In this document: positions 3,240 through 56,963 of the stretch, in pieces
How positions within the stretch are numbered: position 1 is the stretch's first letter
Layout of the letters: each line of letters opens with the position of its first letter
Origin: Candidatus Yanofskybacteria bacterium
Lineage (GTDB): Bacteria > Patescibacteriota > Minisyncoccia > 2-02-FULL-40-12 > IGHO2-01-FULL-4-A
Assembly (NCBI GenBank): GCA_016185545.1
Contig: JACPNJ010000001.1
Location: forward strand, 22,565-86,564
Reading direction: 5' to 3'
DNA length: 64,000 nucleotides
The notes under the pieces: generated by a model
What the model saw: only the letters and a program-made list of their open reading frames with translations
Told to the model about the DNA's origin: nothing
The model's database searches: none
Made by a program: the position numbers and the translations under genes

Positions 3240-3364
3240 GGTTCTCTCCCGATTATTTTTTAAAGTTCTGTATTATTATATTATGTATTAATCCAAGGAT
3301 AAATTACTCCTAACCGCAAATTTTGTAAAGCACACCCGCTGCTTGTATTGTATGATATCGTGCT

Positions 3365-3410
3365 GTACGACATCGCAAGTCGTGCAATTGCACGACTTGC
3401 GATGTCGTAC
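3365..3410. promoter_or_regulatory. 46-bp perfect palindrome (GTACGACATCGCAAGTCGTGCAATTGCACGACTTGCGATGTCGTAC), putative operator upstream of the HAD-ECH gene
   Basis: Exact reverse-complement symmetry read directly from the sequence. Flanked by further GCTGTACGAC / GTCGTACAGC arms (3358-3425). No T-run follows, so it does not look like a simple terminator. Confidence 0.45.
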
Positions 3411-3510
3411 ATGTCGTACAGCGTGTCGTGCAGGTTGCAAACTTATGCTCAATAGATGTGGTGGTGAAGTTAGTTTTGTAATAAAAAATCAGGATAAAAT
3501 CCTGATTGAT

Positions 3511-5418: not shown

Positions 5419-6921
5419 ATGGTTGGGAATAAAATCATTGTCATTAATCCTGCAAATTCAGAGACGGTGGAAGAGTTGCCGGTTCATAATGCGTCGGACT
5501 TGGATGTTTTGGCGCAAGATGCCAGGACAGCCCAAAAAAAATGGAAAACCGTACCTTTTTCTGAACGGCTGGAACTTTTTAAAAATCTGAAACATTTTAT
5601 TCAGCATAACTATCAGGAATTTGTTACGACAATCCAACCGGAAACTGGCAAAACTTGTCCCGATACGATGGTGGATGTAATTTCCATGGTTGCCCAGATT
5701 CATAATATTGAAAAAAATGGCATCGGCCGTGTTTTGGAATTTCAAAAGCCAATCAAGTCCCATCCCTTTTTACGCAACAAAATAACGACTGTGCCACGCA
5801 GACCCAAAGGGGTAGTGGGTGTAATCTCGCCGTGGAATCTGCCGCTGGCAATTCCAGCGGCGGATATATTTCCGGCGATATTTCGCGGTAATGCGGTAAT
5901 ATGGAAACCTTCAGAGTTCACACCACTTTCGGCGCTAAAACTTAAGGATGCGATGAATAAGGTTGGATTCCCCGGCAATCTGCTGCAAGTCGCTATCGGT
6001 TACGGAGAGACCGGCGCGGCACTTTGCGAGACCGTTGACTGCGTTGCTTTTACCGGTTCGTGCGCGACTGGAGAAAAAGTAAAAGCAATCTGTGATAGGC
6101 GTCACATTTCGCATCATCTTGAAATGGGCGGGAAAGCTCCAGCCATTGTTCTTGCCGATGCCGACATTGACCGCGCTGTTTACGGTTTGCTCTATGGCGC
6201 GTTCAGCAATAACGGCCATTATTGCAAGGCGTTTGAAATCGCGCTGGTTCATTTAAGCATTTTTGATGAAGTGGTTGACCGGCTTTTGCATCTTGTCAAT
6301 AATTTGGTACCCGGCAAAGATTACGGACCCATCATTACCAAACCGCAACTTGAAATCATAAAAAATCAGGTAGAACAAGCCAGAAATCTCCATGCTTATG
6401 TTGCAACCGGCGGGCTAGAGATTGGCGAGGCACGTGGCTATTGGTATAAGCCGACAGTCCTTCTTTACACTACCGAAGATATGGATGTCGTACGAAAAGA
6501 AACTTTTGGTCCGGTGTTGCCGATTATTCCGTTTGATAAGGAAGAGGAGGCAATTCGTATCGCCACAATGTCGCACCTTGGGTTGAATGCCTCAATTTTC
6601 ACGAGAAACGAGAAAAAGTTTTATGAACTTGCCAATGGCATTCTTGCTGATCATATTGGCAATATTGTCGGTAATGACGTTATGATTAACTGGTTTATCA
6701 CCGAAGCGCCGCAGTGCGGCAGAAAATACAGTGTTGCTCCAGTTTGCGGGCTTGAACGCCATGGGCGTTCCGGTGATGAACGCTTTGATACCCCTAATAC
6801 CATTATCTGGCACAAACATTCGTTTTTCCATCTCCCGTTTTTCAAAAATAAGGAACCGTGGTGGCTGCCATATGGTGGTTTAACGAATTTAACGTTGAAA
6901 ACTTTTCTTTGGGGGTTTTGA
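5419..6921 (+). CDS. aldehyde dehydrogenase family protein
   Basis: ALDH-family hallmarks: 'ISPWNLP', 'EMGGKAP' (catalytic Glu region) and 'FSNNGHYCKA' (catalytic Cys region). GAGGAA RBS before the ATG at 5419. Confidence 0.8.
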   Translation: MVGNKIIVINPANSETVEELPVHNASDLDVLAQDARTAQKKWKTVPFSERLELFKNLKHFIQHNYQEFVTTIQPETGKTCPDTMVDVISMVAQIHNIEKNGIGRVLEFQKPIKSHPFLRNKITTVPRRPKGVVGVISPWNLPLAIPAADIFPAIFRGNAVIWKPSEFTPLSALKLKDAMNKVGFPGNLLQVAIGYGETGAALCETVDCVAFTGSCATGEKVKAICDRRHISHHLEMGGKAPAIVLADADIDRAVYGLLYGAFSNNGHYCKAFEIALVHLSIFDEVVDRLLHLVNNLVPGKDYGPIITKPQLEIIKNQVEQARNLHAYVATGGLEIGEARGYWYKPTVLLYTTEDMDVVRKETFGPVLPIIPFDKEEEAIRIATMSHLGLNASIFTRNEKKFYELANGILADHIGNIVGNDVMINWFITEAPQCGRKYSVAPVCGLERHGRSGDERFDTPNTIIWHKHSFFHLPFFKNKEPWWLPYGGLTNLTLKTFLWGF

Positions 6922-20646: not shown

Positions 20647-20743
20647 TTGGACTGTTGCACTAATTAAAACAAAACTCCATGCCATACGGCATGGAGTTTT
20701 GTTTTTGCTGAGTTAATATTTATATTAAACTAATCTTCTCCAT

Positions 20744-21971: not shown

Positions 21972-22664
21972 ATGCAAAAGGTAACTCTACAAGCGGAGAC
22001 GAGAAGTATAATCGGCAGACAGGTGAAGTCGCTAAGACGGCAGGGTTTTGTGCCAGCGGTGGTCTATGGGCACGAATTTAAGCCATTATCTATTCAAGTG
22101 CCGTTGAAGGATTTTGAGCGTGTTTACGCTGAAGCGGGGGAGTCAACGGTGGTTTACCTGAATGTTAACGGGCAAGACCATCCTACCATTATCCATGATA
22201 TTGTTCGCGATGCGCTAAGCGATAAGTTCTTGCACGCCGATTTTTACAAAGTACGATTGGACGAGAAAATAAGCGCCAAAATTCAACTTAATTTTATAGG
22301 CGAATCGCCGGCGGTTAAGGGTCTGGGCGGCATCTTAGTTAAAAACATATCAGAAATTGAAGTTGAAGGTTTTCCGCAGGATTTACCGCACCAGATTGAT
22401 GTTGATATTTCCGGCATGGCCGAGCTCAGAAGCCACATTCAAATCAAGGACCTGCCAATCTCAACCAAGCTTGAGGTTAAGGCCGAACCGGAAGCAATCA
22501 TAGCCCTTATTCAGGAGCCGATATCCGAAGAAGAATTAAAAGCCCAGCTTGAAACTCCAGCCGCGGCCGCGCCGGAAGATGTTGAGGTTATCAAGAAAGA
22601 GAAGCCTGAGGAGGAAGTCGCCGAAGAAACACCTGCCACTCCAGCCGAAAAACCAGAAAAATAG
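21972..22664 (+). CDS. rplY: 50S ribosomal protein L25 / general stress protein Ctc
   Basis: 'LQAETRSIIGRQVKSLRRQGFVPAVVYG' bL25 N-terminus, with an acidic C-terminal extension. Confidence 0.8.
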   Translation: MQKVTLQAETRSIIGRQVKSLRRQGFVPAVVYGHEFKPLSIQVPLKDFERVYAEAGESTVVYLNVNGQDHPTIIHDIVRDALSDKFLHADFYKVRLDEKISAKIQLNFIGESPAVKGLGGILVKNISEIEVEGFPQDLPHQIDVDISGMAELRSHIQIKDLPISTKLEVKAEPEAIIALIQEPISEEELKAQLETPAAAAPEDVEVIKKEKPEEEVAEETPATPAEKPEK

Positions 22665-22962
22665 CGCTCATCCCCTGCCAATTTTTATCAGGTGTCCTCG
22701 CAGTACAAATAATATGTTGATTTTCTCGTTTTTCTGTCAGGCGAAGTTTCTTGTGGGCGGTGCTTTAGCCCGCCCATAGAATCTCCTCTGATAAAAAAAT
22801 CGTACCCCTTACGCTCACCCAGCCCCACTTTTATTCTAAAAGTGGGGCTGGGTTCGCTCCGTCCCAATTTTCTTTATCAGCGAAAAACTTCAAAAATCAA
22901 CATTTATTTGTTACTACTCAAGCCAATTGATAAAAATTGACAGGGGCTCGCTCTAGTCTAAA
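22665..22962. mobile_element. MITE-like repeat family A, copy 1 (about 295 bp, TIR CCCCTGCCAATTTTTATCA, internal hairpin CCCAGCCCCACTTTT...AAAAGTGGGGCTGGG)
   Basis: Near-identical to 55015-55262 except for a 53-bp internal insertion and a different but still self-complementary central hairpin. The two ends are inverted repeats of each other. Confidence 0.5.
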
Positions 22963-23843: not shown

Positions 23844-23964
23844 TTTGTTTGTCCGCACACAGCGAATCGAGTCCTATCAAAAATTACAAACCCTAATCCC
23901 AGCCGTAGTTTTAGCAAAAACTACGGCTGGGTGATTTTTATCACTTCGATAATGAATTACTGCT

Positions 23965-24692: not shown

Positions 24693-25600
24693 TTGAGATT
24701 TTGAGCTAGTTCTTCAAATAGTGGATTCAGATGTCCATCAAGAATTTTTTGAATGTTACCCCAGCTTTTTTTAATGCGGTGATCGGTGATGCGATCTTGG
24801 GGAAAATTATAGGTACGGATTTTCTCGGCGCGTTCAGCAGAGCCGATCTGCTTGCGGCGTTCCTCGGTAATCACGCCGACTTCTTCCTGTTTTTTTATAT
24901 CCAATAGCTTGGAGCGCAAAATATCAAGGGCCAGTTCTTTATTTCGTGCTTGAGAACGTTCACGCTGGGAACTTACAACAATGCCTGTTGGTTTGTGGGT
25001 AAGGCGCACGGCAGTCGAAACTTTATTGACATTTTGGCCCCCGGGGCCGCCGGCGCGATACATGGTCATTTCTATGTCTTCCGGCTTGATTTCAATGTCT
25101 GTTTCCCGTGCTTTAGGTAAGACGGCAACGGTGGCGGTTGAGGTATGAACACGGCCGCTTTTTTCTGTTTCGGGTATTCTTTGAACACGATGCACACCCG
25201 ATTCATATTGCATTTTTTCGTAGACATCTCTGCCGGATAATTCAAAAATTATATTCTTGTAACCACCCAATGATGTTTGGCTATAATCCATTACATTAAA
25301 TTGCCAGCTCTGAAGCACGGCGTATTTTTTGTACATTTCAAAAAGTTTAGTAGCGAAAAGCGCCGCCTCTTCGCCGCCGGTGCCGGCACGTATTTCAACA
25401 ATGACTTCTGATCGGCCTTGCCCTAAACCTGCCAGACCTGAGCCAGCCGAGTGGGTCGGATGACTATCCGCCAATAGCCGTTCAATTTCCGCATATCTTT
25501 TAGACGCTTCAGCCACCCGCTTGTAATCTAAAACAAACTCGGGATCAACGAGTTGTTTTTGGATTTCATCAAGTTCTTTTTTGAGGTTTTCTGGGATCAT
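24689..25600 (-). CDS. prfA: peptide chain release factor 1 (short form)
   Basis: GGQ motif '[23 protein letters not shown]' and the RF1-type tripeptide region 'RVQRIPETE...GRVHTS' (PxT, not SPF). Confidence 0.75.
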
Positions 25601-25628
25601 GGGATTATTCGAGAATTAGGATCGGCTA

Positions 25629-25877
25629 TTATTTTTTAATACGAGGTTTTTTAACGGCTTTGGTTTTGATCGCTTCTTCTGACTTAGTCATCCTCTTTTT
25701 GAATTTCTCAACTCGGCCGCGAGTATCAAGCATCTTCTCCTTCCCAGTATAAAAGGGATGGCAATTACTGCAAATTTCCACGCTAATCTCCGGCATCGTT
25801 GAGCCGGTAGTCCACTTATTCCCGCACGCGCAATGTACTTTAGCCTCGTAGTATTTTGGATGAATATCGTTTTTCAT
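25629..25877 (-). CDS. rpmE: 50S ribosomal protein L31
   Basis: '[27 protein letters not shown]' with the CxxC...CxxH zinc ribbon. Confidence 0.85.
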
Positions 25878-25944
25878 TATTGTAATATTAACATATTTTA
25901 TTGGTTTTCCACAAGTGGTGGATGGGACTAGTTTTATTTGGTAC

Positions 25945-26170
25945 TAAAAATCAAAAAGTCCTGCTATTTTGCCAGGACTTTTTGATTGTGGACCCGACGG
26001 GGCTTGCACCCGCTTCGTTACGTGTCAATGGTAACATGTTACTCCATACACCACGGGCCCGGATCCACATTCGCGAGCTTAAAACAAAAAGAGCCCTTTT
26101 GCAAAGGCCCTATTTGTTGACACGTAACTTTTGCCCGTGTATTGCACAGAGCAAGTTACCATTGAGCCCA
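25945..26170 (-). ncRNA. candidate structured RNA (unclassified) ending in a terminator hairpin
   Basis: Nested long-range pairings: CGTTACGTGTCAA / TTGACACGTAAC and CAATGGTAAC / GTTACCATTG. On the minus strand it ends with AAAAAGTCCTG-GCAAAATAG-CAGGACTTTTT plus a U-run (25953-25985). No protein signal. Confidence 0.2.
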
Positions 26171-26356
26171 TTATAGCAAACCCAAATATTATGTCAATTG
26201 TTTGTGGATAACCAAAATACTGAGAATAACTCGGTTTTTTTACTCCCAGGGGGTGGGGAATTAAAAGACAAAGTGTTAGATATTTTTGGAAATTTCTGGA
26301 GTTTCTATAAATAAGCTCTAGAAATGAGCCATAGCAATAACTGATGCCTTTCTTTA

Positions 26357-27160
26357 CTTAGAGGCTCAGCCTCTAAGTAACCAACAACTTACAATTTTTG
26401 CCGAGACACCTCGGCTTTTATTTTACTTTCGCCGCACAGGTTACTTAGAGGTTGAGCCTCTAAGTAACCTGTGCTATAAGTTTAATCTATGAGAAAACTT
26501 CAATTTGAAAATGGAGAGTTTTATCACATATACAACCGGGGCAACAATAAAAGGCCTATTTTTATGAAATCTTTTGATTTGCAGAGATTTTTGCAAAGTA
26601 TGATTGAATTCAATGTAGATGGACCAATCGGAAGTATTTATGCCGTTTCTTTCAACAAAGAATCACTTAGAGGCTCAGCCTCTAAGTCGAGACGACCAGT
26701 TGATATTGTTTGTTATTGCCTAAATCCTAACCATTTTCATCTTTTAGTTAGACAGTTGGAAAACGATGGAATTAAGAATTTTATGCATAAATTAGGAACT
26801 GGATATACAATGTATTTTAATAATAAACACGAATTGAACGGTGGACTTTTTCAGGGGAGATATAAAGCAATTCACATAGATACAAATGATTATCTGTTGT
26901 ATTTAAGCGCTTATATCAATTTAAATCCTGAAGCCCATCAACTTAGAGGCTCAGCCTCTAAGTTGTGCCAATCAAGTTGGAATGAATATATCGGTGATAA
27001 ATCTAGCAAGGGTAAATTGTGCAATACCAGGATTGTATTGTCGCAGTTTGAAACCGTGGAGGGTTATAAAAAATTTGCCGAAAAGGCGCTCGGGGTGATT
27101 ATAGAGAAAAAAGAGATGGAAGAATCCCTGAAGCTTTTACTTAGAGGCTGAGCCTCTAAG
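26357..27160. repeat. REP-like 21-bp palindrome CTTAGAGGCT(C/G)AGCCTCTAAG, five copies (26357-26377, 26444-26464, 26666-26686, 26942-26962, 27140-27160)
   Basis: Exact or 1-mismatch copies read from the sequence. Copies 3 and 4 lie in frame inside the RAYT ORF (LRGSASK). Copy 5 contains the ORF's TGA stop. Confidence 0.7.
26489..27151 (+). CDS. REP-associated tyrosine transposase (RAYT) / IS200-like HuH Y1 transposase
   Basis: 'GEFYHIYNRGNNKRPIF' N-terminal RAYT motif, HuH motif 'NHFHLLV' and catalytic tyrosine context 'GGLFQGRYKA'. Confidence 0.75.
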   Translation: MRKLQFENGEFYHIYNRGNNKRPIFMKSFDLQRFLQSMIEFNVDGPIGSIYAVSFNKESLRGSASKSRRPVDIVCYCLNPNHFHLLVRQLENDGIKNFMHKLGTGYTMYFNNKHELNGGLFQGRYKAIHIDTNDYLLYLSAYINLNPEAHQLRGSASKLCQSSWNEYIGDKSSKGKLCNTRIVLSQFETVEGYKKFAEKALGVIIEKKEMEESLKLLLRG

Positions 27161-27294
27161 TGGCTATGGGCGCTTGCTTGGCGCTTTAAATTTTGTTATT
27201 ATTCTCAGCATGTCAGAAGTTAGTAGTACAACCCCGTTAGATATTTACGTTGTTAAGCAAACTAACGAGGTTAAATCGGGCATATTGTTAATTT

Positions 27295-28047
27295 ATGGAA
27301 ACCGCGACAAAACAATCTATATCTAACGGGGCAGGCCAATTTTTGCCGGCTTATGAAGATATGGTTAAATCCGGAATGCATTTTGGGCGGAAAAAGACGA
27401 TTTTTCATCCCAATATGAAGCCCTACGTCTATACACTCAAGGACAATATCTATATTTTGGATTTGATTAAAACGACCGATTCGCTTATTAAAGCTATAGA
27501 TTTTCTGAAAAAAGCAATTGTCGAAGGCAAAATGATTTTATTTGTCGGTTTGACCAAGCAGTCAGCTGAAACGACTAGAACAGCCGCCGAAGCATTAAGT
27601 ATGCCTTACGTTATAAATCGCTGGTTAGGCGGGACGCTGACCAACTTCAAAACCATTATTGGTCGGGTAAAGTATCTGGAAGATCTTGAAAAAAAGCAGA
27701 CAGATGATGGTTTTGAAGGATTTACTAAAAAAGAGAAGATATTAAAAGAAAGAGAAATCGCCGCCTTGCGGCTTAAATTTGACGGTATTCGCAAGCTGAC
27801 TCGCGTACCCGATATCATATTTATTACTTCGCTCAAAGAGAGCCAGTTACCCGTGCGTGAAGCCAAAAGAGCGGGGGTTAAGGTGGTAGGCATAGTGAAT
27901 ACGGACAGTGATCCCAAACAGATAGATTATCCGATTGTGGCGAATGACAATTCCAAGAAATCGGTGGAGTTGATATTGGAAGCAGTCAGGAAAGGAACTT
28001 CTGGCTACGAAGGTACGAATAAATACGAAAATACGAATGATTTGTAA
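27295..28047 (+). CDS. rpsB: 30S ribosomal protein S2
   Basis: 'MVKSGMHFGRKKTIFHPNMKPYVY', 'LFVGTKKQ'-like 'LFVGLTKQS' and 'VVGIVNTDSDP'; conserved S2 blocks. Confidence 0.85.
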   Translation: METATKQSISNGAGQFLPAYEDMVKSGMHFGRKKTIFHPNMKPYVYTLKDNIYILDLIKTTDSLIKAIDFLKKAIVEGKMILFVGLTKQSAETTRTAAEALSMPYVINRWLGGTLTNFKTIIGRVKYLEDLEKKQTDDGFEGFTKKEKILKEREIAALRLKFDGIRKLTRVPDIIFITSLKESQLPVREAKRAGVKVVGIVNTDSDPKQIDYPIVANDNSKKSVELILEAVRKGTSGYEGTNKYENTNDL

Positions 28048-39715: not shown

Positions 39716-40090
39716 GTGAATAAAGACGATTTTATAAAACAAGTCGAATCTATGACAGTAGTTGAGCTTAATGATCTAGTGAAAGCGCTGGAGGAAAAGT
39801 TTGGAGTATCGGCTGCGGCTATGGCCGCGCCGGCAGCCGGAGCAGCTAGCGGGGAAGAGGCCGGTCCGTCAGAAGAAAAAGATTCTTTTAATGTAATTCT
39901 TCAAAGCGCCGGTGAACAGAAAATACAGGTTATCAAAGTGATCCGTGAGATAACCGGTAAGGGTCTCAAAGAATCCAAAGATTTGGTTGATGGTGCTCCG
40001 CAAACGGTAAAAGAAGGTGTGAAGAAAGAGGAAGCTGATGAACTTAAAAAGAAATTGGAGGATGCGGGCGCGACAGTAGAACTCAAGTAA
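39716..40090 (+). CDS. rplL: 50S ribosomal protein L7/L12
   Basis: '[31 protein letters not shown]', Ala-rich hinge and C-terminal '[22 protein letters not shown]'. GTG start at 39716 with an AGGAG RBS 7 nt upstream. Confidence 0.85.
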
Positions 40091-40120
40091 TCAAAAACCG
40101 GCCATGCGGCCGGTTTTTGA

Positions 40121-42163
40121 TTACTTGAGTGTCCAGATTTTGTTGTCCGTGGATAGAATCCAAACCGTGCCGTCGGAGGAGACGGATATATCTTGAGGTG
40201 TGCCGACAGCTTCTAGTTTATAAGTTGTTTTAAGTTCGCCTGTTGTTTTATCAAAAATATAAACTCTTTTGTTTGTCTTATCGGCCAGAAAGAGGAAAGC
40301 CGAGTCCTTGAAAGTGAAAATGCGGCTGTCTGACGCAGGAATAAGCCGCAAATCCAATTCGCCGGTTTTTTTGCCCTTAAAGTATAATATCAGTTTGCCA
40401 TTGTCCGCAAGCGCGTAAATATTGCCGTCAGCGGTTATGGATGTCAGATTACCGCTTGCATTGTCGCTGGTCCAGATTGTACGCTTCGTTCCGCCAGTTA
40501 CTGCGTCGGCATATTTATATATTGTTTTATCGGAAAGAATATAAAGATTATTTTCGTATAAGATAGCGTCTATAGCGGATACCGGTTCTTTAAGAGTGTA
40601 CTGCTCAATTTTTTTGGATTTCAAATCATAGATGCCGAAGGCGTCAGAACCGTTGAAGACGGAGGCAAATGATGATGAAGTATATAGAAATTGTGGTGTA
40701 ATCTTGAATTGGCCTAACTGTGAAACTTCATTTTGATTGACATTGAAAATTAGGCCAATAATATCGATTATGCTGATAAGACCGTCATAAGCTGACACGA
40801 AACTAACCTTGAGATTGCTGTTTTGAGCCGATATGTCCGCGAAAAGCGTTGGTTGTTTATCGCTAACGCGATCAAGGTCATCCAAAGTTTGATTTATTTG
40901 TAATTTAATATTTTCGGCTTTTTTGTCTGAAAAACTGGCTAAACTTGCCAAGGATGCCTGAAGCAGTGTCCGAGCGTCTTTAAAATTGCTTTGGTTAAGC
41001 CATGATTGCGCCAGTTTAACATTTTCGCCTGCTTGTTTTATGGTGTTCCTGTTTTCATTTGAAATTCCTCCGGTTTTCCATAAAACAAAAATTAAAACGG
41101 GAAAAATAATGATCGCGGAAACTAGAATAAAACCACGCCGGCGCGCGCGTTCTCCCAATTTGCCAGTAGAAATCAGTTTACGGAGACCTTTTATAACCGG
41201 AGTTAAAATCGTTTCTCTTTTACTTACTAAAAATTCAGCGGGTATAATACGTGATTGTTCCATTTCTGGACTTTCCGGGCCGGTTCCTTGGTCCGCGACC
41301 GTAATTTCGGGTATTTGATCAGGGACATCTTGGGGTTTGCCGCTATTCAGTCTGATTTGAGACGGTTGTTTTGTATTCTGAGACTCTAGCGGAGCTTCCG
41401 GCTCCGTTTCCTTTTCCTTGTTGTCGTTTGGTGTCCTAGTTTTAAAAGTTGATTTGGTATAAGTTGCTGATGATACGGGTATTTCTTTAACCTCATGCAT
41501 ATCTATATGAACACCGCAGCAGGAAAAATTAGTTGTATTGGTAGCCAAATGTGCTATTTTTTGGCCAAATTCTTCCTGGTTTTCCTTGATGAAAATTCCA
41601 TTAAGTTGTTTTTCCCTTGATGTCAGCGACCTTGATGGAAAGTAAGCGAATATTTTGTCTTTTGACTGAACTTTACCGGAAATAATATTTGAAAACTGCT
41701 TTTCGCCCTCGGCATCCTTACTGAATAATTCAACATTATTGAGTATGTCTATATATTTACCGTTGCGAGCCAAGGCAATTTTGAATTTACCCAAACGCGA
41801 AATGTAAATATTTTCGCCTGAAATTGCGGCCAAGCCGATATTCAGTTTAAAATTATTGTTTTGGAAAAAATCATCCAAAACCTCATTAAGCTTTTTTAGA
41901 GTGCGCTCGAAAGCGCTTTTAGCATTTTGTTCCCGTAACGATATGTCTGAATAATATTCTCTTTTTGCCAAAGACGAAATTAAACTTATCGTGTAAGAAA
42001 GATCCTCTTGAGAATATTTGATGTGGCCCAAAACAAAGAGCGAGCCAAGCATTTTTTCCTGATTCCCGGCGCCTTGATATGCTAAAACATCAAAATGAAC
42101 ATTATCCTCGCCGCTTTTGTAGATAAGCTCTTTGATAGCAGGTTTTAAAGTAATTTTTTCCAT
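40121..42163 (-). CDS. membrane-anchored hypothetical protein with C-terminal beta-propeller-like repeats
   Basis: Cytoplasmic about 330-aa N-terminal domain, one TM helix ('FILVSAIIIFPVLIFVLW') and a C-terminal region of repeated 'DG.IY.L.D.K.I' strands (PQQ/WD-like). Confidence 0.4.
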   Translation of the reverse strand: MEKITLKPAIKELIYKSGEDNVHFDVLAYQGAGNQEKMLGSLFVLGHIKYSQEDLSYTISLISSLAKREYYSDISLREQNAKSAFERTLKKLNEVLDDFFQNNNFKLNIGLAAISGENIYISRLGKFKIALARNGKYIDILNNVELFSKDAEGEKQFSNIISGKVQSKDKIFAYFPSRSLTSREKQLNGIFIKENQEEFGQKIAHLATNTTNFSCCGVHIDMHEVKEIPVSSATYTKSTFKTRTPNDNKEKETEPEAPLESQNTKQPSQIRLNSGKPQDVPDQIPEITVADQGTGPESPEMEQSRIIPAEFLVSKRETILTPVIKGLRKLISTGKLGERARRRGFILVSAIIIFPVLIFVLWKTGGISNENRNTIKQAGENVKLAQSWLNQSNFKDARTLLQASLASLASFSDKKAENIKLQINQTLDDLDRVSDKQPTLFADISAQNSNLKVSFVSAYDGLISIIDIIGLIFNVNQNEVSQLGQFKITPQFLYTSSSFASVFNGSDAFGIYDLKSKKIEQYTLKEPVSAIDAILYENNLYILSDKTIYKYADAVTGGTKRTIWTSDNASGNLTSITADGNIYALADNGKLILYFKGKKTGELDLRLIPASDSRIFTFKDSAFLFLADKTNKRVYIFDKTTGELKTTYKLEAVGTPQDISVSSDGTVWILSTDNKIWTLK

Positions 42164-43153: not shown

Positions 43154-43228
43154 GGGCTCGTAGTTCAGGGGCAGAACGTCCGATTCACATTCGGAAGGTC
43201 AGAGGTTCAAATCCTCTCGAGCCCACCA
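43154..43228 (+). tRNA. tRNA-Val (anticodon CAC)
   Basis: Acceptor GGGCTCG/CGAGCCC, anticodon stem-loop TCCGA-TTCACAT-TCGGA, T-arm AGAGG-TTCAAAT-CCTCT, CCA encoded. Confidence 0.8.
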
Positions 43229-43265
43229 AAACAAATACGCCACCTAGGTGGCGTATTTGTTTTGG
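43229..43265 (+). terminator. rho-independent terminator after tRNA-Val
   Basis: AAACAAATACGCCACC-TAGG-TGGCGTATTTGTTT followed by TGG. Confidence 0.5.
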
Positions 43266-43618
43266 TGGTGATGTTGATAACTTGTATACATTAATTTTGG
43301 CTTTGTAAATGTAATTTCGGAAAATATGTTAAAAATCGGCTAGAATAGGCGATTTTTTGTGATTGTGTCAAATATAGAATTGACGCTAAAGTTATGCACA
43401 TTGCATAGTATTGCGGTACTGGAATTGGGTGGTATATAATGAAGGTAAAGTGTAAGAAAGTGGATAATAGTGTTAATAACTAAGGCAAATCGTTGATAAA
43501 CTTTCAAAAAGAATCCGGTACTGATATATTGGTTTGGTTGAATTATCGAAATGTTTGATAAGCCCACAATATTTCCCGCCATTTACACATATTCATGTAG
43601 TGTCAAAATTTTAGCCAT

Positions 43619-55417: not shown

Positions 55418-55579
55418 AGCAAAGCCATAGTGCCTTTTGGGACTTCTGGGGTTGCCGCCAGCATGGTTTTGTCAATGACCGAGTTAAGCGAGTGTCTTGA
55501 CAAATGGCGGCAATCACAAAAGATGAGCCGAGCTCGCTGGAGCGAGGCGAAGTTCCCAAAAGGTACTATGGCGAAGCGA
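55418..55579. mobile_element. MITE-like repeat family C, copy 2
   Basis: Matches the reverse complement of 29815-29974. Its right TIR overlaps the last codons of cysS. Confidence 0.5.
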
Positions 55580-56963
55580 GTTTTTTGACTAGCGGGCCGT
55601 AGTTGGTATCTTCAATCTCGTAGCCGAGGTTTTTTATTTGGTCGCGGAGTTGGTCGGAGTGGATGAAGTCCTTGGCTTGGCGAATGGTTTCGCGCTCGCT
55701 TATTAGTTTTTGTATCTCCGGCGGTATTTCTTGTGATTTTTTAGGAATGATACTGAGAATTTGATCAAATTCATTTAGCATTTCCAAAGATTTTTTTGCA
55801 TCTTCACTGCTGATTTTTCTTTCATCAATCAACGGATTTACTTCTCTTACAAAATCAAACAAAGACGCAATTGCTTTGGGAGTATTAAAATCATCATCCA
55901 TTTCTTTTTCAAAATTTTCCTTTATTTTTTCAATCAATTCCAACTTAGGAGTTGAACTCCTAAGTAGAGATTTTTCAATATTTTTTAGGCGATTAGTAAA
56001 TTCGGCTAAACGATTTACTGCTGCCTCGGTTTGTCTCAGGTTTTCTTCGCTGTAATCAATAGGAGAGCGATAATAAGCCATCAGTATCATCATGCGTAAA
56101 GCTTCGGCTGGATATTTTTTTAAGGCGTCGCGTATTGTTATGAAATTGCCTAGCGACTTGGACATTTTTTGGCCACTGACGGTTAAAAATCCAGGGTGTA
56201 TCCAGTATTTGACGAATGGTTTTTTGCCGGAAATTGATTCCATTTGGGCAATTTCGGCTTCATGGTGTGGAAATATCAGATCTTGTGCGCCGCCATGCAG
56301 GTCGTATTGGAAACCGAAATGTTTTTCAGTCATAGCGGTATCTTCAATGTGCCACCCTGGACGGCCATAGCCAAGCTCGCTATTCCAACCCGGTTCCTCC
56401 AGCTTAGAAAATTTCCACAAGGCAAAATCGCCGCGATTTCTTTTTTTTATGCTTTCATCAATGCGGCTGACTGCATCTTCCGCTGATTGTGTTGTCCGTC
56501 CCGACAGTTTGCCGTAATCAGGAAATTTGACCAGGTCAAAATAATAACCGTCATCTTCGATGAGATAGGCGATACCCTTTTCAATCAGTTGTTTTACTTG
56601 GCTAACAATTTCCGGAATATATTGAGTTGCCGGAGCGTATTCCGAAACCGCAGTGATGCCGAGGGATTTCATGTCCTCGTAATATGCTTCTTTATATTCC
56701 AGCGCTAAATCAGCCGGATTAATCATTTTTTGTTTGGCCCGCTCAATAATTTTATCGTCAATGTCGGTAATGTTTTGCAGATAAAAAACTTCGTAGCCGC
56801 GATGCCGCAGATATTTGGCGACAACGTCAAAAACAACATAGGTTCTGGCATGGCCTATGTGCGAATAATCATAAACCGTTGGTCCGCAGACGAACATCCT
56901 GACTTTTGAGCCGGGTGAGAGAAATTCTTCTTTTTGGCGAGCTAGAGTATTATAGATTTGCAT
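55566..56963 (-). CDS. cysS: cysteine--tRNA ligase
   Basis: 'CGPTVYDYSHIGHAR' HIGH motif, 'KMSKSLGN' and zinc-binding Cys. Confidence 0.9.
   Translation of the reverse strand: MQIYNTLARQKEEFLSPGSKVRMFVCGPTVYDYSHIGHARTYVVFDVVAKYLRHRGYEVFYLQNITDIDDKIIERAKQKMINPADLALEYKEAYYEDMKSLGITAVSEYAPATQYIPEIVSQVKQLIEKGIAYLIEDDGYYFDLVKFPDYGKLSGRTTQSAEDAVSRIDESIKKRNRGDFALWKFSKLEEPGWNSELGYGRPGWHIEDTAMTEKHFGFQYDLHGGAQDLIFPHHEAEIAQMESISGKKPFVKYWIHPGFLTVSGQKMSKSLGNFITIRDALKKYPAEALRMMILMAYYRSPIDYSEENLRQTEAAVNRLAEFTNRLKNIEKSLLRSSTPKLELIEKIKENFEKEMDDDFNTPKAIASLFDFVREVNPLIDERKISSEDAKKSLEMLNEFDQILSIIPKKSQEIPPEIQKLISERETIRQAKDFIHSDQLRDQIKNLGYEIEDTNYGPLVKKLASP

Follow-up and report, generated by a model that had tools for sequence, protein, structure and literature searches.

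A RAYT-like Y1 HUH gene of a Candidatus Yanofskybacteria bacterium and the REP-like hairpins around and inside its reading frame

The gene and its five hairpin copies

A gene for a Y1 HUH enzyme (HUH, histidine-hydrophobic residue-histidine) lies in a 64,000-nucleotide (nt) stretch of DNA from a Candidatus Yanofskybacteria bacterium (contig JACPNJ010000001.1), which was analyzed over its full length and is referred to as the window. The enzyme resembles the REP-associated tyrosine transposases (RAYTs), whose genes are recognized by flanking repetitive extragenic palindromes (REPs) or inverted REP doublets (REPINs) as their hallmark (PMC2817692, PMC3116915, PMC5581495). The window gene is accompanied by five copies of one short palindrome, two of which are located upstream, two inside the open reading frame (ORF), and one at the stop codon. 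The features of the locus are given below in window coordinates, with the palindromes left without a strand.

26356..26378, no strand: hairpin copy 1, distal upstream, perfect 23-mer with centre C
26400..26425, plus strand: terminator-like GC hairpin GCCGAG-ACAC-CTCGGC (hairpin 26400-26415) with a T-run, consensus scan only
26434..26474, no strand: hairpin copy 2, promoter-proximal, 23-mer at 26443-26465 inside a palindrome with an 18-bp stem
26472..26480, plus strand: extended -10-like element TGcTATAAG, read from the sequence, 8 nt before the ATG at 26489
26489..27151, plus strand: RAYT-like Y1 HUH nuclease/transposase gene, 220 amino acids (aa), sole long ORF of the region
26665..26687, no strand: hairpin copy 3, internal site 1, read as LRGSASK, residues 60-66
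26941..26963, no strand: hairpin copy 4, internal site 2, read as LRGSASK, residues 152-158, within a 13-bp stem
27139..27161, no strand: hairpin copy 5, 3' end, centre G
27168..27196, plus strand: terminator-like hairpin with a T-rich tail, directly after copy 5, consensus scan only

The repeat unit is a 23-nt perfect palindrome, ACTTAGAGGCT[C/G]AGCCTCTAAGT, whose five copies fall within 806 bp. The original prediction had described a 21-bp palindrome at these five places; all of them were recovered, the true unit being the 23-mer. When the 21-mer CTTAGAGGCTSAGCCTCTAAG was searched with up to three mismatches, matches were found at 26357, 26444 (one mismatch), 26666, 26942, and 27140, against a shuffle expectation of 0 (100 shuffles), and no further match was found in the rest of the 64-kb window. 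The start-to-start spacings of the 23-mers (87, 222, 276, and 198 nt) can each be divided by 3. A REPIN-like arrangement, which the original prediction had suggested looking for, is present upstream of the gene, where copies 1 and 2 together with their flanks form an inverted doublet with 29-nt arms that are 97% complementary and 56 nt apart. Copy 2 carries a single mismatch (C->T at 26452). The GC hairpin that had been placed between the two upstream copies is indeed located there, and it probably insulates the gene against read-through from upstream, judged by its terminator-like sequence. Both internal copies are read in frame without a stop, and copy 5 reads CTT AGA GGC TGA and thereby provides the stop codon of the gene (27149-27151), both as predicted. 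As single-stranded DNA, the copies are predicted to fold at -8.6 to -20.7 kcal/mol, with z-scores of -4.3 to -9.4 against shuffled controls. An Rfam search of 25500-27600 at permissive E-values returned just sub-threshold chance matches. Two other classes of repeat were considered and rejected: a CRISPR-like array, as the spacing is irregular and copies lie inside an ORF, and an uptake sequence, as the repeat is far too rare.

The protein matches the Pfam family Y1_Tnp (PF01797) over residues 68-144 with 32.9 bits against a cut-off of 23. Its AlphaFold model, which was built with 29 homologues as input, has a mean pLDDT (predicted local distance difference test) of 84.9, and the best Foldseek match of the model in the Protein Data Bank (PDB) is 4ER8, the Escherichia coli RAYT bound to a REP hairpin (E 6.4e-7), followed by the TnpA proteins of IS608 and ISDra2. 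Five residues are invariant in the family alignment, namely H82 and H84 of the HUH motif (H82-F-H84), Y142, N146, and H150. They correspond to H59/H61, Y115, N119, and H123 in the active site of the E. coli RAYT (PMC3479197), and the pattern Y-x3-N-x3-H is found in both proteins. Because of this match, the catalytic tyrosine is assigned from the sequence to Y142 (in AYINLNPEAH). The original prediction had instead chosen the tyrosine of a GRYKA motif, which is Y125 and is replaced by Phe in many homologues. Its broader claim stands, and the gene encodes, on sequence and model, an intact Y1 HUH enzyme of RAYT type.

Both internal copies are accommodated at the protein surface. In the model, site 1 forms the loop of lowest confidence between helix 47-56 and strand 71-78 (residues 59-63 have a pLDDT <50). 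Site 2 starts two residues past H150, the invariant residue of the catalytic helix that is equivalent to a metal ligand, and is found in a linker of lower confidence. Neither copy interrupts a conserved block, which agrees with the earlier expectation that the two LRGSASK segments would map to loops. The C-terminal extension of about 70 residues is modeled as helical.

Conservation and concerted change of the hairpin

The locus was compared with 80 metagenome loci, one genome locus (L001), and three close relatives (L087, L088, and L089). Hairpins were called with up to two mismatches in 10-bp arms, and the occupancy counts are lower bounds. The family is large: homologues at E <= 1e-5 fall into 3697 clusters at 90%, and at E <= 1e-30 there are 230 clusters of 50% representatives. 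Named homologues are 190-250 aa long and are mostly annotated as “transposase” of Candidatus Yanofskybacteria, Paceibacteria, and other Patescibacteria. The family element is a fixed 23-mer in which the foot (ACTTRG/CYAAGT) is conserved, four base pairs vary, and 3 nt form the centre. In nearly every gene, hairpins take the same positions relative to the ATG (about -45, +175, +445, and +650), with the following occupancy.

Upstream hairpin: 69 of 78 loci
Site 1 hairpin: 45 of 82 loci
Site 2 hairpin: 44 of 82 loci
3' end hairpin: 61 of 78 loci

Of the 82 loci, 27 have hairpins at both internal sites, 35 at a single one, and 20 at neither. The internal copies thus recur at the same two sites in related genes and are present or lost locus by locus. 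A palindrome that had “colonised” the window gene as a local and recent event, as first proposed, does not fit this distribution, in which the internal sites are common to the family and co-evolve with the flanking copies. The other part of that claim, that the palindrome is the enzyme’s own repeat and is read in frame inside its gene, holds.

All 88 internal copies share one frame (A CTT...AAG T), which yields the peptide L-x5-K. The peptides differ widely (LRGSASK, LGHSMSK, LRCPAPK, LGDRVSK) while the palindrome persists, which identifies the nucleic-acid palindrome rather than the peptide as the conserved feature. In the protein alignment, homologues likewise bear differing heptapeptides at both internal sites and at the C terminus that are alike within one protein, as in the cases of a threefold LRGSTSK and a twofold LSGSTTK. 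Among the 120 nearest protein clusters, a palindrome-compatible L/F-x5-K peptide is present at both sites in 57 and at one site in 53, compared to a background of 0.6% elsewhere in the same proteins. A centre reading TGA or TAA occurs in none of the 88 internal copies but in 21 of 134 flanking copies, which indicates that the ORF is under purifying selection through its hairpins. It is extremely improbable that LRGSASK is a selected peptide repeat with incidental palindromy, or that the gene is a decaying pseudogene. The peptide does occur twice, and its L and K are conserved across the family, but the intervening residues vary almost freely and the DNA palindrome also persists in the non-coding flanks; decay is contradicted by an ORF that is intact in about 85 loci examined, by the invariant catalytic residues, by the stop-free internal copies, and by the location of both peptides in low-confidence loops.

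The family is found in very diverse genomic surroundings among housekeeping genes. The 219 neighboring ORFs fall into 170 clusters, and their clustering revealed no synteny that is conserved across the family, a result that fits a mobile and an immobile unit alike. Plasmid and phage searches gave matches at <=33% identity only. No duplicate of the gene was found in the window or in the 10-kb flanks of its relatives, except for paralogs at 32-40% identity; the window holds one family ORF, and a second, distant Y1 paralog is present in 4 of 82 loci. These second paralogs lie a few kb from the first (L065 3995-4651, L067 6512-7180, L076 11708-12463, and L083 3050-3733) and own different flanking hairpins, such as TTGACCTAAACT.AGTTTAGGTCAA in L065. 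The L067 paralog belongs to a distant subfamily and bears CGAAGGTT.AACCTTCG at -30 and +661 and also internally at about +167. Other distant representatives carry LRSEASQ, CKGPTFA, or FQHSVLE, each twice, at the same two internal sites. Compound hairpins were observed as well. In L051, the flanking hairpins (about 2674-2709 and 3375-3410) enclose another palindrome within their loop, ACTTAGAAAC-GGGGTTTCGAAACCCC-GTTTCTAAGT, whereas the internal copy is a plain 23-mer; the 3' end of L053 (about 6556-6599) is a compound hairpin with a 20-bp stem.

At the 3' end, the stop codon is located just before the hairpin in 51 of 63 loci and inside it in 9. At the 5' end, a TAnnnT hexamer begins exactly 2 nt past the upstream hairpin in 41 of 71 loci, and in 38 of these 41 the final T of the hairpin and a following G make up the TG of an extended -10 element. 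A TGnTAnnnT element is found within 45 nt of the hairpin in 54 of 71 loci. The same juxtaposition is seen in 0 of 88 internal and 2 of 63 3' copies. The upstream hairpin of the family fills the spacer and the -35 position, with its left foot TTGGNN 17 nt upstream of the -10. The window gene departs from this family layout by a displaced -10, and a 17-nt spacer puts the -35 (TTGAGC, 26452-26457) at the centre of copy 2, where it arises from the single mismatch of that copy. The ATG follows 6-9 nt beyond the hexamer in 35 of 40 loci, so the mRNA is probably leaderless or nearly so, as far as the sequence can tell.

Pairing of the hairpin arms is maintained by compensatory changes. Site 2 was aligned in 74 loci at a fixed register from the invariant H150, irrespective of whether a hairpin was detectable. 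Here, 81.5% of the cells are paired compared to 67.9% in shuffles, and 119 double-change cells are found compared to 46; neither value was attained in any of 500 shuffles. When the partners were slid by 1-3 columns as a control, pairing dropped to 31-52%. The covariation backs a paired structure, three of the five window copies are transcribed with the ORF, and their stems are stable, which would also suit an element that acts in the mRNA through translation pausing, RNase protection or processing, or autoregulation by the protein as an RNA binder, and that is kept by selection on RNA structure. Such an RNA-level element is nevertheless improbable. Identical copies occupy the promoter region, which would not be transcribed if the mRNA is leaderless, and dispersed copies use two frames in unrelated genes. 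The mismatches of the internal copies comprise 11 A.C and 8 G.T on the sense strand and lack the wobble bias expected for RNA structure. The centre triplets flip freely between the upstream and the 3' copy (28 same, 22 inverted, no fixed pattern); an apparent inverted trend of the internal centres is explained by the avoidance of TGA/TAA centres. Moreover, selection on RNA would leave unexplained why one arbitrary inner stem is common to all copies of a locus. The emphasis of the original prediction on hairpins in the enzyme’s own mRNA is therefore not favored.

The copies of one locus change in concert. Of the copy pairs within a locus, 81% have the same 6-nt variable core, compared to 3.3% of pairs between loci, and 48 distinct cores were found. 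The steps of this process are visible among the close relatives of the window gene.

Window and L088 (85% aa identity to the window protein): AGAGGCT.AGCCTCT at every copy
L087 (79% aa identity to the window protein): AGAGGTT.AACCTCT at all four copies
L089 (73% aa identity to the window protein): AGTGGTT.AACCACT at all four copies

One and then two base pairs have been exchanged at every copy, while the flanks of each copy stay orthologous among the four loci. The promoter copy of the window looks half converted, a hint that this copy lags behind the others. The gene is followed by rpsB in the window and in L087, and the same position is presumed for L088 and L089, whose downstream ORFs are partial. 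Core identity tracks protein identity (9 of 9 pairs at >=80% aa identity, 28% at 70-79%, and 1-5% lower), which indicates that the hairpin is inherited vertically with the gene, as in RAYT systems, and is turned over slowly and in concert. The homogenized unit is the 23-mer itself; similarity ends at its edges, which makes ordinary homologous gene conversion unlikely. Tandem or partial arm duplications are found beside several copies (L088, P0012, P0068, and P0113). In L088, the closest relative of the window gene, partial duplications of the right arm, 13 nt (~1104-1116) and 9 nt (~1439-1447) in length, directly follow the distal-upstream and the site-1 copy, the latter adding SSK to the protein. 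Judged by their sequence, they may have been left behind by slippage or by a strand transfer that was aborted at the 3' foot.

The perfect two-fold symmetry of the 23-mer, foot included, the overlap of one copy with the core promoter in most loci, and the helical C-terminal extension of about 70 residues could also be read as signs of a double-stranded palindromic operator. It would be bound by a dimeric protein, either through the C-terminal part of the enzyme or by a host regulator, and its half-sites would covary through binding the same subunit. We regard this as quite improbable. The 48 inner stems are spread over proteins with 44-63% identity to the window protein, and where the protein remains 73-85% identical, the core has shifted one base pair at a time; a copied sequence is a better fit to this than a co-evolving operator. 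In addition, copies within unrelated ORFs have no operator logic, a pure repressor has no need for invariant catalytic HUH and Tyr residues, and the closest fold binds its hairpin in single-stranded DNA.

Copies away from the gene are rare. The flanks of the family loci contain 19 copies in 574.5 kb (~1 per 30 kb) compared to ~2 per kb at the gene, an enrichment of ~70-fold. The dispersed copies are mostly intragenic, and their in-frame hosts include, among others, a dnaG-like gene, a ksgA-like gene, a gene for a membrane protein of 581 aa, and an ORF resembling a prepilin peptidase. The core of the local gene recurs in eight of the 19, against a background of 3%. The exact 23-mer is also present in two other genomes; in a Yanofskybacteria metagenome-assembled genome, it lies in frame in the C-terminal ORF of fmt (HLEAEPLSG) and in a penicillin-binding-protein-like gene (NLEAQPLS). 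In the window itself, further exact copies of the 21-mer, which the original prediction had thought worth counting, are absent, and a sibling of the 23-mer was found.

55943-55965, in cysS (minus strand, about 55569-56963): sibling 23-mer ACTTAGGAGTTGAACTCCTAAGT, same foot, different inner stem, read LRSSTPK

The remaining 63 kb of the window hold no sibling copy but this one, whose core is of the type found in the family members P0018 and L016. The cysteinyl-tRNA synthetases of related genomes carry LGGSTTK, LSGSTTK, LGSSATK, LNGSSTK, or LSSSTTK in the same variable loop, which is occupied by unrelated sequence in more distant orthologues. At the DNA level, the cysS hairpin is perfect in the window and in L086 and decayed in L084 and L085, and in L086 a decayed copy with another core adjoins the perfect one. 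In dnaG, L050 and L065 bear different cores at the same site. Taken together, the varied cores at one loop, the decayed neighbors, and the arm duplications suggest that existing copies or feet have been targeted repeatedly, with the older copy then decaying or being lost. At window positions 47772-47794, ATTTAGAATGCGGTATCCTAAAT was noticed as a marginal match to the hairpin (8 of 10 pairs, 10 of 12 foot positions); about 1 in 5 shuffles gives a comparable match, and it could be a decayed copy or chance.

Proposed mechanism and relation to known systems

The observations are best accounted for by a “REPtron”, a locus of a Patescibacterial (Candidatus Yanofskybacteria-type) clade of RAYT-like Y1 HUH enzymes that represents a REP/RAYT-type system adapted to a gene-dense genome. 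We consider it fairly likely that its hairpins are cognate REP-like DNA elements that are kept uniform by copy-and-replace, probably by the enzyme in cis. By analogy to the closest fold, we infer that the enzyme would bind the 23-nt hairpin in single-stranded DNA and would cleave and rejoin DNA at or near the conserved foot. Copy-and-replace would be limited to the 23-mer and would most likely proceed by enzyme-mediated strand transfer, preferentially in cis. New copies would land on or beside old ones, which would then decay or be deleted, and a base-pair change in the inner stem could in this way sweep through all copies as concerted evolution. Copies in the two permissive surface loops are translated as L-x5-K linkers. 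The internal copies are read here mainly as tolerated and continually renewed substrates rather than as a required regulatory device, as both are lost in 20 of 82 loci. From its position, the promoter-overlapping copy is likely the one with a regulatory role. Binding of the enzyme or cruciform extrusion at this copy would stop transcription and might thus provide autoregulation, as in many insertion sequences.

The process is attributed to the enzyme in cis because of the ~70-fold enrichment at the gene, the diverse neighborhoods, and the recurrence in subfamilies with other hairpins. An explanation without the enzyme would combine intrastrand template switching, that is, quasipalindrome correction, with local slippage and template switching, and would make the Y1 gene a mere hotspot. 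It is suggested by the partial arm duplications and by the uniformity of the copies, which is strongest where they lie <1 kb apart, while distant copies often differ. We assign it a low probability, since the enrichment is specific to the gene family across all its surroundings, the same four positions recur family-wide, other subfamilies (the L067 paralog and the LRSEASQ, CKGPTFA, and FQHSVLE proteins) bear different hairpins at the same two internal sites, and 8 of 19 distant copies match the local core.

A bolder form of the proposal, which we deem unlikely, sees in the enzyme a site-specific “hairpin rewriter” that reads only the foot ACTTRG/CYAAGT and replaces the inner hairpin at fixed addresses, with the copies in its own ORF serving as selection-protected master templates. 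If this were true, enzyme and substrate would be inseparable by recombination, one mutation in a master copy would spread to every address, and the reaction would amount to self-templated DNA editing, distinct from REPIN or IS200/IS605 transposition.

Several points weigh against copy-and-replace by a RAYT-type enzyme. The protein scores 31.4 bits with the NCBIfam RAYT equivalog NF047646 (REP_Tyr_transpos), below the cut-off of 80, and a sequence-profile search of the PDB with the window protein gave no match. The hairpin is symmetric and lacks GTAG, and its recognition and cleavage could differ from those of known RAYT and IS200/IS605 enzymes. With no GTAG tag and a score below the NCBIfam cut-off, the system is better described as a RAYT variant than as a classical REP/RAYT system. 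The 20 loci that lack both internal hairpins indicate that the internal copies are not essential. Eleven of the 19 dispersed copies, among them the window cysS copy, differ from the local core, which implies that homogenization is local or that several hairpin types coexist. Homogenization over <1 kb could also be achieved by template switching between nearby hairpins without an enzyme. Finally, a generic promoter scan made no call at the window element at 26472-26480, and the promoter is a consensus-level reading from sequence in Patescibacteria, whose promoters are not characterized.

One of the closest known systems is E. coli TnpA-REP (RAYT, YafM; 4ER8; PMC3479197). Both enzymes have a Y1 HUH fold with an HUH motif and Y-x3-N-x3-H, both are encoded by a single chromosomal gene that is bracketed by cognate palindromic hairpins whose type co-diverges with the protein, and the upstream pair in the window is a REPIN-like inverted doublet. 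Unlike the E. coli RAYT, the window protein has ~30 extra residues in its N-terminal half and a longer helical C terminus, in addition to its score below the NCBIfam RAYT cut-off. Two copies of its hairpin also lie in frame, at conserved places, within the ORF of the enzyme itself, an arrangement found in none of the RAYT papers searched.

In known RAYT and IS200/IS605 systems, the hairpin is asymmetric, pairs imperfectly, and has a 5' guide tetranucleotide. The window hairpin, in contrast to REPs and bacterial interspersed mosaic elements (BIMEs), is perfectly symmetric, without a 5' GTAG tag, a one-sided CGTC, or stem mismatches. It also differs from REPs in its low copy number (~1 per 30 kb outside the gene) and in dispersed copies that reside mostly inside ORFs. 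It is not a classical REP, and the original prediction is corrected on this point. Low-abundance repeats are also known from RAYT groups 1 and 4 (PMC5581495).

The minimal unit of hairpin, Y1 gene, and hairpin (~0.8 kb) resembles IS200/IS605 elements such as IS608 and ISDra2, and by analogy to their TnpA proteins the enzyme is expected to act on single-stranded DNA hairpins. In contrast to these elements, there is one copy per locus and identical duplicates were not seen, the left and right hairpins are identical and symmetric with extra copies within the ORF, and the gene is placed among housekeeping genes without close plasmid or phage matches and without a noticeable tnpB-like neighbor. The IS200/IS605 enzymes possess a Y-x3-Q helix and form an obligate domain-swapped dimer; in the window protein, the motif of the helix is Y-x3-N-x3-H, as in RAYTs.

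Intragenic GTAG/CGTC REPs and Rickettsia palindromic elements have been documented (Di Nocera 2013, PMC3733652). Like these, the present hairpins are found in frame in housekeeping genes (tRNA synthetases, replication genes) and are translated as an extra peptide. They differ in having a dedicated adjacent Y1 gene, with the enzyme’s own gene as the main host, and in that one gene loop carries different hairpin variants across genomes; the unit is also smaller (23 nt, 7-8 codons) than Rickettsia palindromic elements (about 100-150 bp).

In insertion sequences, the transposase promoter is embedded in the terminal inverted repeats, and the end sequence overlaps the -35 or the spacer, which allows autorepression. 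If the promoter is read correctly here, autoregulation of this style would follow from the overlap of end sequence and promoter. In this case, the “end” would be a hairpin-forming palindrome and the mRNA apparently leaderless, and the regulation would be one by analogy.

The E. coli RAYT cleaves and transfers strands in vitro. We know of no settled role for RAYTs, no agreed account of how REP hairpins are copied, and no established mechanism for their mobility in vivo. A literature search gave no report of REP-type hairpins that are kept inside a RAYT ORF or of their concerted change; most subscription journals lay outside this search, and the absence is no proof. With an enzyme, a promoter, and four or five substrates within 0.8 kb, the locus offers a compact and testable system for hairpin recognition (foot versus core), copy-and-replace chemistry, and autoregulation. 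In the gene-dense genomes of Patescibacteria, REP-like elements reside in coding sequences, those of essential genes included, and the lineage-specific 7-residue inserts that originate from hairpins matter for annotation and for protein alignments of this group.

Other palindromes and signals

A second palindrome family is characterized by the foot CCCAGC...TTTT / AAAA...GCTGGG and a variable inner stem. In the window, its members are found at 22817-22853, 23898-23931, and 51773-51806 and are intergenic (following ORFs that end at 22664 and 23794). In L085 (730-767) and L086 (1393-1430), a member lies in frame near the N terminus of cysS as a 13-aa insertion that is absent from cysS of the window and L084. 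This family may be another REP-like or terminator-derived element that enters ORFs.

A perfect sigma-70 consensus, TTGACA-16-TG-TATAAT, is located at 26170-26197 on the minus strand and faces rpmE-prfA. The rpmE start follows ~290 nt further downstream, and a terminator-like hairpin (26090-26111, minus strand) is placed in the interval. No Rfam family scored above threshold for the region upstream of rpmE (25877-26165), which could be a leader or an attenuator.

Lastly, the window contains very long perfect palindromes with 18-24-bp stems that are unrelated to the 23-mer (3364-3411, 20666-20705, 40081-40130, and 43223-43268). One of these long palindromes directly follows tRNA-Val (43154-43228).

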